DNA of 50,981 nucleotides from the sequence record PV340545; one strand, written 5' to 3'. This stretch comes from Escherichia phage PhiR5_1. Shown here piece by piece: positions 4,458 to 5,210 of the stretch. The number at the start of each line of letters is the position of its first letter. Positions within the stretch are counted from its first letter, which is position 1. A model generated the notes under the pieces. It made no database searches and was not told the origin of the DNA. It worked only from the letters and a program-made list of their open reading frames with translations. The translations under genes were made by a program, and so were the position numbers.

Positions 4458-5210
4458 TCACACTTCGAATGCCAGTTGAGGGGTAAAGACGTCCCGTTCA
4501 GCGTTGTAATTAAGTGAACTGGCACTGTTGAATGATTCAATGCGTTCCACAAGAACTTGCGTACGGGTTTCTTTACTTGCGGGAGCATATGGCGAACCTA
4601 CCCAGGATTTGTCGATGCCTATATTTCTTGCGACGTTCGTGCTGTCTGCAGACGAAAGCGGTACATGAGTAAAAATGTCTTTATTTAACATCCGTAACCC
4701 ATGAATCTTGGTGATTGGGTAGCCGTACTGATCTACAACATGACGTATAAGATCGCGTAGTTTAGCCCGACACGCTCTCGGTCGTTTTGCATCGTATTCC
4801 CCCATCGAGCCGATGCAGACGCGGGGAAACTCATGGCACAGACGAATAAATCGCTCATCTGGTTCGTTCATGTGCCACACCGGAGCACCAATAAATTTAC
4901 CGTGAGGCCATGCCGCAATCAGGGCGTCATTCTCTTCACTGGTTCCGCCGATAACATCCGGGATAACCGCGAATGAGAAACGAGGGTGATTACCCCAGCG
5001 TTCAACAAATCTGTAATATTCATTCCAGTCTATGGCCTTGTTTTTTGTCCAGAATGTGAATGCACCATTATCAAGAGCAAATGATTGGGTGACTTCGGAA
5101 GCCAGATCAATCTGAGCTGGATTAGCAAAACTGATGAATGCGTGTCTGCCTTTCCAGGCTTTCAACGCACAGGTATCGGGAGTTATTGGACCACCGTGAA
5201 AATGAATCAT
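4458..5210 (-). CDS. Hypothetical protein; possible tRNA-guanine transglycosylase (DpdA)-like
   Basis: 250-aa ORF next to exo; LDNGAF motif resembles the TGT catalytic Asp motif (DSGGFQ); no zinc motif seen. Confidence 0.3.
   Translation of the reverse strand: MIHFHGGPITPDTCALKAWKGRHAFISFANPAQIDLASEVTQSFALDNGAFTFWTKNKAIDWNEYYRFVERWGNHPRFSFAVIPDVIGGTSEENDALIAAWPHGKFIGAPVWHMNEPDERFIRLCHEFPRVCIGSMGEYDAKRPRACRAKLRDLIRHVVDQYGYPITKIHGLRMLNKDIFTHVPLSSADSTNVARNIGIDKSWVGSPYAPASKETRTQVLVERIESFNSASSLNYNAERDVFTPQLAFEV

Follow-up and report, generated by a model that had tools for sequence, protein, structure and literature searches.

The DpdA protein of phage 9g, a member of the DpdA1 subfamily, is a validated enzyme for the insertion of the 7-deazaguanine base preQ0 into DNA. 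Produced alone in Escherichia coli, it puts host-made preQ0 into plasmid DNA at ~0.3% of the guanines (Gs), and this DNA phenotype of 9g dpdA persists in a delta-tgt host (Hutinet 2019). Phages that encode a DpdA and no other gene of the pathway form the third group of 76 in the same study, which suggested that they might use preQ0 of the host; its Supplementary Data 1 lists the proteins of SfI (YP_009147480) and HK106 (YP_007151699) as such DpdAs (Hutinet 2019). E. coli makes preQ0, and Mycobacterium does not. The sequence record PV340545 of Escherichia phage PhiR5_1, whose whole stretch of 50,981 nucleotides was analyzed here (the window, to which positions refer unless another locus is named), is a complete lambdoid prophage that carries a DpdA-like gene on the minus strand at 4458..5210. 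The gene is already known, since the near-identical copy in Shigella phage SfI was catalogued as a singleton DpdA in 2019 and is named in RefSeq.

The PhiR5_1 gene begins with ATG and encodes a neutral protein (pI 7.15) of 250 amino acids. A first-pass annotation had singled out the short motif LDNGAF in this protein as a possible sign of a tRNA-guanine transglycosylase (TGT) or DpdA-like enzyme. The open reading frame (ORF) listing and the raw codons, which read CTT GAT AAT GGT GCA TTC from 5075 to 5058, confirm both the protein and the motif (residues 46-51; 5058..5075, minus strand). The suggested identity is itself supported at the level of family and fold by a shared protein family, a profile alignment with 9g DpdA and the conservation of catalytic motifs. 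It is reasonably probable that the product is a minimal, zinc-less phage DNA-guanine transglycosylase of the DpdA family, with the TGT fold, that inserts preQ0 supplied by the host.

Family membership is the firmest part of this identification. The protein matches PHROG 887, labelled 'queuine tRNA-ribosyltransferase', at E 2e-99, and 9g DpdA matches the same family at 2e-98. A family profile was built from 59 members, representatives of 50%-identity clusters that are 30-51% identical to the PhiR5_1 protein; hhalign aligned it with 9g DpdA at a probability of 98.3% and E 1.2e-14 over 162 columns that cover every motif. LDNGAF is the most conserved block of the family and agrees column for column with LDSGAFS of 9g DpdA; judged from these alignments, it is not a chance match. 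The family is large, with at least 6182 proteins at 90% clustering, nearly all of them named 'hypothetical', and 1749 clusters at 50% identity.

A tblastn search with the PhiR5_1 protein against 50,697 phage genomes found 111 records. Identity is 99.6% for SfI, 84-86% for lambdoid phages of Klebsiella and E. coli, 68% for BTP1 and other P22-like Salmonella phages and 59% for Vibrio phages. Distant matches include HK106 (36.6%, E 2e-27), the DpdA of Salmonella phage 7-11 (35.5%, E 1e-27) and mycobacteriophage DpdAs (27-31%). A 1719-bp record named 'Staphylococcus phage SA 1298 Kay' (OR850331.1) also encodes a protein 68% identical to that of PhiR5_1, equal to the copies of the P22-like Salmonella phages, and is probably contaminated or mislabelled. 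Among complete E. coli genomes, 100 of 5426 contain this allele, always on the chromosome and always at 99% identity or more; 95 of these 100 hold at least 80% of the gene, and the PGAP name of the E. coli copies is 'hypothetical'.

The catalytic residues expected of a transglycosylase are present. Residues were mapped onto 9g DpdA from two alignments (hhalign, and a four-sequence alignment with the 9g, 7-11 and HK106 proteins); the putative equivalents in bacterial DpdA were assigned by motif and spacing from the structure paper. The predicted catalytic nucleophile, which would give rise to a covalent intermediate between enzyme and DNA, is D189 (9g D215, bacterial DpdA D256). It lies in SADST (residues 187-191; 4638..4652, minus strand; codons verified on the raw sequence), which aligns to SCDSS of 9g DpdA, and both D189 and S190 are invariant in the 59 members. 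D47 of LDNGAF, also invariant in the 59 members, is the predicted general acid/base (9g LDSGAF, bacterial DpdA D95). F51 of the same motif is predicted to be the base-stacking gate (bacterial DpdA F99) and is invariant in the four-sequence alignment; this phenylalanine stands four residues after the acid/base aspartate, the same spacing as between D95 and F99 of bacterial DpdA.

Three further positions would form the base pocket. D85 in IPDV, at a strand end (4956..4958, minus strand), is the predicted base-recognition aspartate, for which bacterial DpdA D130 and Zymomonas mobilis TGT D156 are the proposed equivalents; it is at least 90% conserved in the 59 members and invariant in a second family alignment. 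The family consensus at this place, IPDVIDG, has two aspartates, of which the PhiR5_1 protein keeps the first only. H113 (4872..4874, minus strand) is a predicted base contact that corresponds to 9g H141, the histidine of PCFH, and to bacterial DpdA H181, and G134 belongs to a predicted glycine-rich loop (9g G162-G163, bacterial DpdA G206-G207); both residues are at least 90% conserved.

H170 in KIHGLR (4701..4703, minus strand) is invariant in the 59 members and aligns with 9g His196, the DpdA-signature histidine, to which no residue of bacterial DpdA was assigned. His196 is conserved in DpdA and absent from DpdA2 (Hutinet 2019). H170 and D189 are 19 residues apart, exactly as in 9g DpdA, and by spacing H170 would correspond to H226 of Cap10, which hydrogen-bonds the nucleophile; the Cap10 pair H226/D248 is separated by 22 residues (PDB 9NTN). 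The conservation given for the 59 members holds down to 30% identity.

The structural zinc site CxCx2Cx22H and the Ins8/C-terminal subdomain are absent, as judged from residue positions: the only cysteines are at 14, 125, 132 and 147, no histidine follows residue 182, and the protein ends 61 residues past the nucleophile. Because 9g DpdA also has no CxCxxC motif, the missing zinc site separates phage DpdAs from the cellular enzymes and does not exclude the PhiR5_1 protein from the family.

The structure prediction proposed in the first-pass annotation is consistent with this assignment. An AlphaFold2 model based on a 43-sequence alignment (mean predicted local distance difference test score, pLDDT, 79.5; predicted template modelling score, pTM, 0.79) has eight strand-helix repeats and the TGT-type (beta/alpha)8 barrel fold. 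All mapped active-site residues are at the C-terminal ends of the predicted strands, where the active site of a TIM barrel is expected. A Foldseek comparison with predicted viral structures (BFVD) gave 25 matches at E<=1e-3; nine are phage proteins with the name queuine or queuosine tRNA-ribosyltransferase, and the others are mostly unnamed and include a 464-aa protein of Vibrio phage nt-1.

The source of the base was approached through the genes around the family. The first-pass annotation had stated that preQ0 synthesis genes are absent and that the host would have to supply the base. Searches by tblastn with FolE, QueD, Gat-QueC and QueE of 9g and with YhhQ, QueC and radical-SAM proteins from phages bear out the absence, with no homologue of FolE, QueD, QueC, QueE or YhhQ in the window. 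Host supply is a reasonable proposition. The same queries found none in the IMG/VR loci nearest to that of PhiR5_1 (80 loci at 84-100% identity, with flanks of up to 10 kb) and none in the SfI, HK106 and 7-11 loci. The PhiR5_1 copy is a true singleton.

A sister clade presents a different picture. Its DpdA-like proteins are 39-43% identical to that of PhiR5_1, and 80 of its IMG/VR loci were examined. A gene of the PF02592 family, which is COG1738/YhhQ and has been shown to transport preQ0 (Zallot 2017), is found nearby in 41 of the 80, within 200 bp in 37. When the count is limited to loci whose flanks reach 3 kb or more on each side (n=43), a linked gene is present in 21, namely 19 with the PF02592 transporter and 2 with a radical-SAM/QueE-like gene. 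The pairing was also seen in loci of the clade that were looked up singly, L090 (8001-9196), L093 (8001-9714) and L094 (4340-5726). Three arrangements occur in such single loci: in one the PF02592 gene directly follows the DpdA-like gene, in another it lies just upstream, and the third has the order ERF, YqaJ exonuclease, small ORF, DpdA-like gene, QueC and PF02592, with a radical-SAM gene further on.

On a single contig, a continuous ORF of 335 aa (positions 2840-3847 of that locus) joins QueD (PTPS) to a DpdA-like domain, which lends weak support; no QueC, QueE or FolE gene is found near it in the 13.8 kb covered. These gene neighborhoods point to a connection between the whole family and 7-deazaguanine metabolism, and the frequent pairing with a YhhQ-type importer in the sister clade is the most useful new evidence for a model in which the base is salvaged. 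Phage YhhQ showed no correlation with any phage group in earlier work (Hutinet 2019), and its pairing with DpdA-like genes may be under-appreciated.

Several points weigh against a preQ0-inserting enzyme. It is difficult to say in advance whether the DNA of a DpdA-only phage is modified, and the gamma-proteobacterial singletons make up a separate cluster whose function may have diverged (Hutinet 2019). Two singletons have been tested: Orion, whose host does not make preQ0, had no modification, and the DNA of 7-11 contained dADG by liquid chromatography-mass spectrometry at 50 per million nucleotides, ~0.02% of the Gs (Hutinet 2019). No published experiment was found on the PhiR5_1 protein, on those of SfI and HK106, or on any lambdoid singleton DpdA; a preprint on antiviral glycosylases was set aside because it is about defences that attack dPreQ0 DNA and is unrelated to the DpdA family.

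On the side of the protein itself, D85 is three columns off the 9g DpdA aspartate in both alignments, which makes their equivalence tentative, the protein is neutral, and the missing Ins8/zinc subdomain is part of the DNA-binding surface of bacterial DpdA. Model confidence is low in the last 60 residues and also in the first 20, and Foldseek against PDB structures gave weak, generic TIM barrels only. The protein has no match in Pfam or NCBIfam (hmmscan, E up to 10) or in PADLOC (E up to 1), and Pfam and PADLOC scans of the 59 family members gave no relevant match. In particular, the PF01702 (TGT) match by which the first-pass annotation proposed to check its call was not found by the Pfam hmmscan. 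This failure does not discriminate, because the DpdAs of 9g and 7-11 and gp29 of HK106 likewise have no Pfam match. Sequence searches of the PDB, by phmmer and with two profiles, gave no match beyond the spurious HipT, GCN4 coiled coils and chaperonin, and an hhalign comparison of that profile with E. coli Tgt, as one sequence, gave none either (probability 0.3%). At the level of sequence, the link to TGT itself is indirect.

A rival reading is that the protein is an active TGT-fold enzyme of diverged function, one that excises a base from DNA like a glycosylase, without reinsertion, exchanges guanine for another host base or acts on the 7-deazaguanine DNA of another phage or of the host. Such an enzyme would serve superinfection exclusion, anti-defence or recombination and not self-protection by preQ0. 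In its favor are the remark on possible divergence (Hutinet 2019) and the lack of modification in mycobacteriophage singletons, whereas the residues predicted to line the base pocket and to catalyze the exchange of guanine and 7-deazaguanine are all conserved and E. coli, unlike Mycobacterium, makes preQ0. Moreover, a preQ0 importer at about half of the sister-clade loci, and QueC or QueD at some, would be sensible only if a 7-deazaguanine is the substrate. Divergence is rather unlikely.

A tRNA-guanine transglycosylase that alters the tRNA modification of the host or the phage is suggested by the RefSeq name of SfI gp34, the PHROG 887 label and the TGT-superfamily fold. This is improbable, given the missing matches to PF01702 and E. 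coli Tgt and a length of 250 aa against the 375 aa of that enzyme. The zinc site CxCxxC...H is lacking, the last cysteine being residue 147 and the last histidine not beyond 182, and the only relatives detectable by sequence are phage DpdAs. In addition, the 9g dpdA DNA phenotype does not depend on host tgt, the host already has a Tgt, and the window contains no tRNA genes.

A decaying or inert passenger gene, inactive in E. coli, would fit the rarity of the allele (100 of 5426 genomes) and its location in the dispensable, mosaic ea/b-region. It is very improbable all the same: the ORF is intact and translationally coupled, the E. coli matches are all at least 99% identical with at least 80% of the gene present in 95 of 100 genomes, and the catalytic residues show no variation in 59 diverse members of a family that numbers at least 6182. 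An enzyme like Cap10 would act on a protein-linked 7-deazaguanine, for instance as a phage weapon against type IV CBASS that captures its NDG-modified CD-NTase. The PhiR5_1 protein resembles Cap10 in structure alone, and partner genes are missing, so that this role is scarcely credible.

Under the favored reading, insertion of host preQ0, the protein would be expressed together with the Red recombination genes from the early-left operon, once the prophage is induced or a cell is infected. A deoxyguanosine would be flipped out of double-stranded DNA, D189 would attack its C1' and D47 would protonate the leaving guanine, which would leave the enzyme covalently joined to the DNA as an intermediate. 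The pocket formed by D85, H113 and the G134 loop would then take up a free 7-deazaguanine base; it would most likely be preQ0, made by FolE, QueD, QueE and QueC of the host or brought in by the YhhQ importer of the host. After D47 deprotonates N9 of the base, N9 would attack C1' and yield dPreQ0 in DNA. Because the phage has no synthesis genes and nothing boosts the precursor pool, substitution is expected to be low, probably a small fraction of the Gs, perhaps at a specific motif. The mark would weaken restriction, or other defences aimed at DNA, when the next host is entered.

Activity of the enzyme would mean that lambdoid, P22-like and SfI-like prophages of E. coli, Shigella, Salmonella and Klebsiella have 7-deazaguanine in their DNA from host metabolites only. 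This would bear on the evasion of restriction and CRISPR, on nanopore or single-molecule real-time (SMRT) base-calling of induced phage DNA and on how sensitive these phages are to defences that recognize modified guanine. The system is unusually tractable, with a prophage that can be induced in E. coli, one enzyme of 250 aa and available host que mutants, and could settle the question raised in 2019 of what DpdA-only phages do. For annotation, 'DpdA-family DNA-guanine transglycosylase (predicted)' would be preferable to 'hypothetical protein' and to the misleading 'queuine tRNA-ribosyltransferase'.

A broader and still doubtful idea is that the stand-alone, zinc-less DpdAs of temperate enterobacterial phages are orphan epigenetic writers, comparable to orphan methyltransferases, which place a sparse, motif-specific mark from host or imported preQ0 or preQ1 during induction, or else that the enzyme has come to use another base or only to excise. 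A Dam-like methyltransferase takes up the genomic slot of the PhiR5_1 gene in a sister phage. A sparse 7-deazaguanine mark, if real, might allow the phage to get past defences that read modifications, of the Dpd type or others. Either version would extend 7-deazaguanine DNA chemistry from virulent phages of the Queuovirinae type to lambdoid prophages of E. coli, Shigella and Salmonella.

The genes around the DpdA-like gene are ordinary lambdoid early genes, and the 2 kb of DNA around it are 98.8% identical to Shigella phage SfI. The Red recombination module (5362..7126, minus strand) lies upstream in the same transcription unit and consists of a gam-like gene (6830-7126), bet (6039-6824) and exo (5362-6042), all on the minus strand in the ORF listing; their SfI equivalents are annotated as Gam, RecT-like annealase and exonuclease, respectively. 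The placement beside exo and bet given in the first-pass annotation holds as proximity and not as direct adjacency, since a 54-aa DUF1317 gene, the homolog of lambda orf60a (5207..5371, minus strand; PF07026 at 2e-33), intervenes before exo.

This DUF1317 ORF overlaps the end of exo, and its own stop is overlapped by the ATG of the DpdA-like gene in an ATGA at 5210-5207. The two overlaps indicate that the DpdA-like gene is translationally coupled into the early-left operon; a Shine-Dalgarno-like GGGAGAG is located 3 nt 5' of its ATG. A DUF1317 gene also adjoins the homolog of the DpdA-like gene in 31 of the 80 closest viral loci.

Downstream is a 71-aa ORF (4235..4450, minus strand), a homolog of lambda orf61 that has no Pfam match. 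A longer reading of 117 aa (4235-4588, minus strand), which would overlap the 3' end of the DpdA-like gene by 131 nt, was rejected because it probably starts too early; the annotated orf61 homologs of PhiR30_1 and 434 match the 71-aa version with its start at 4450, and the SfI annotation carries the same long reading. A putative terminator, a hairpin followed by a T-run found by consensus scan only, is positioned after the orf61 homolog (4196..4214, minus strand). Beyond it are a DksA/TraR zinc-finger gene (3915-4136, minus strand), an Ea22-like gene, xis and int.

The slot between orf60a and orf61 is polymorphic across lambdoid phages. It holds orf63/DUF1382 in phage 434 (1928-2119 of that locus), a DNA N6-adenine methyltransferase in PhiR30_1 (1928-2485 of that locus) and the DpdA-like gene in PhiR5_1 (window 4450-5210) and in SfI. 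The slot looks exchangeable and sometimes used for DNA-modification cargo. One relative of the PhiR5_1 protein is fused to a Dam-like D12 DNA methyltransferase (421 aa, without the first ~40 barrel residues), and this fusion, together with the PhiR30_1 methyltransferase in the same slot, fits a role in DNA modification. A 399-aa fusion to a Phage_GPD baseplate domain was disregarded as a probable gene-calling artefact.

Other features of the prophage were recorded in passing. Directly downstream of the cI-like repressor gene (9611-10366), at the position of rexA/rexB in lambda and SfI, are two mutually overlapping genes (7915-9491, minus strand) for a DUF3037 protein (280 aa, PF11236) and a HipA-like kinase (250 aa, PF20613 HipA_2, E 1e-76), followed by a strong terminator-like hairpin (7860-7881, minus strand). 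Together they may make up a kinase-based module of the prophage, for exclusion or as a toxin, that is expressed in the lysogen. Between the DUF3037 gene and the 96-aa ORF after gam (7200-7490), no ORF of 50 aa or more is present at 7491-7915, a place where lambda-type phages have N and nutL. The sole Rfam match in the window is the small RNA family STnc100 (18417-18622, plus strand; 143 bits, E 1e-31), between a Q-like antiterminator gene (17454-17849) and a 662-aa phrog_143 gene of unknown function (18846-20834). Two separate genes encode Ant-type anti-repressors (phrog_245 and phrog_63), one in the nin region (14291-15040, plus strand) and one in the late region (23541-24236, plus strand).

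Of the described systems, Cap10 of type IV CBASS (PDB 9NTN) has structural similarity and no detectable sequence similarity to the PhiR5_1 protein. Cap10 binds the N-terminus of a CD-NTase modified with 7-amido-7-deazaguanine and works with the QueC-like Cap9 in a defence operon whose CD-NTase begins with M(G/S)G(G/S)GG; the window has no QueC-like gene and the PhiR5_1 protein no PADLOC match, and its neighbors have other functions. The bacterial DpdA of the Salmonella Montevideo Dpd system (PDB 7UI4) is a 413-aa protein with Ins1, Ins2, Ins3, Ins8 and the zinc site CxCx2Cx22H that needs the DpdB ATPase. None of these is found in PhiR5_1, and among the neighbors of its gene there are neither the Dpd partners dpdB-K nor queA or other queuosine genes that would accompany a TGT.

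Among the phage proteins, 9g DpdA shares LDxGAF, P-x-[WF]-H, the glycine-rich strand end, K-[IV]-H-G and S-x-D-S with the PhiR5_1 protein at ~18-21% identity, but is longer (317 aa), with ~40 extra N-terminal residues and a longer C-terminus, and its gene belongs to a FolE/QueD/Gat-QueC/QueE cluster of a virulent phage, whereas that of PhiR5_1 stands alone in a temperate one. The 7-11 DpdA and HK106 gp29 (234 and 266 aa, 35-37% identity) have the same motifs and no preQ0 genes nearby, and the HK106 gene, like that of PhiR5_1, lies between the recombination module and xis/int; both represent a different sub-branch, and 7-11 is a virulent phage of 90 kb. SfI gp34, called queuine tRNA-ribosyltransferase in RefSeq, is 99.6% identical and has the same neighbors (traR-like, orf61-like, DUF1317, exo and bet). 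There is no gene-level difference to speak of between the two. The prophages around them do differ, SfI being a 38-kb serotype-converting phage that carries rexAB where PhiR5_1 has the HipA-like/DUF3037 pair.

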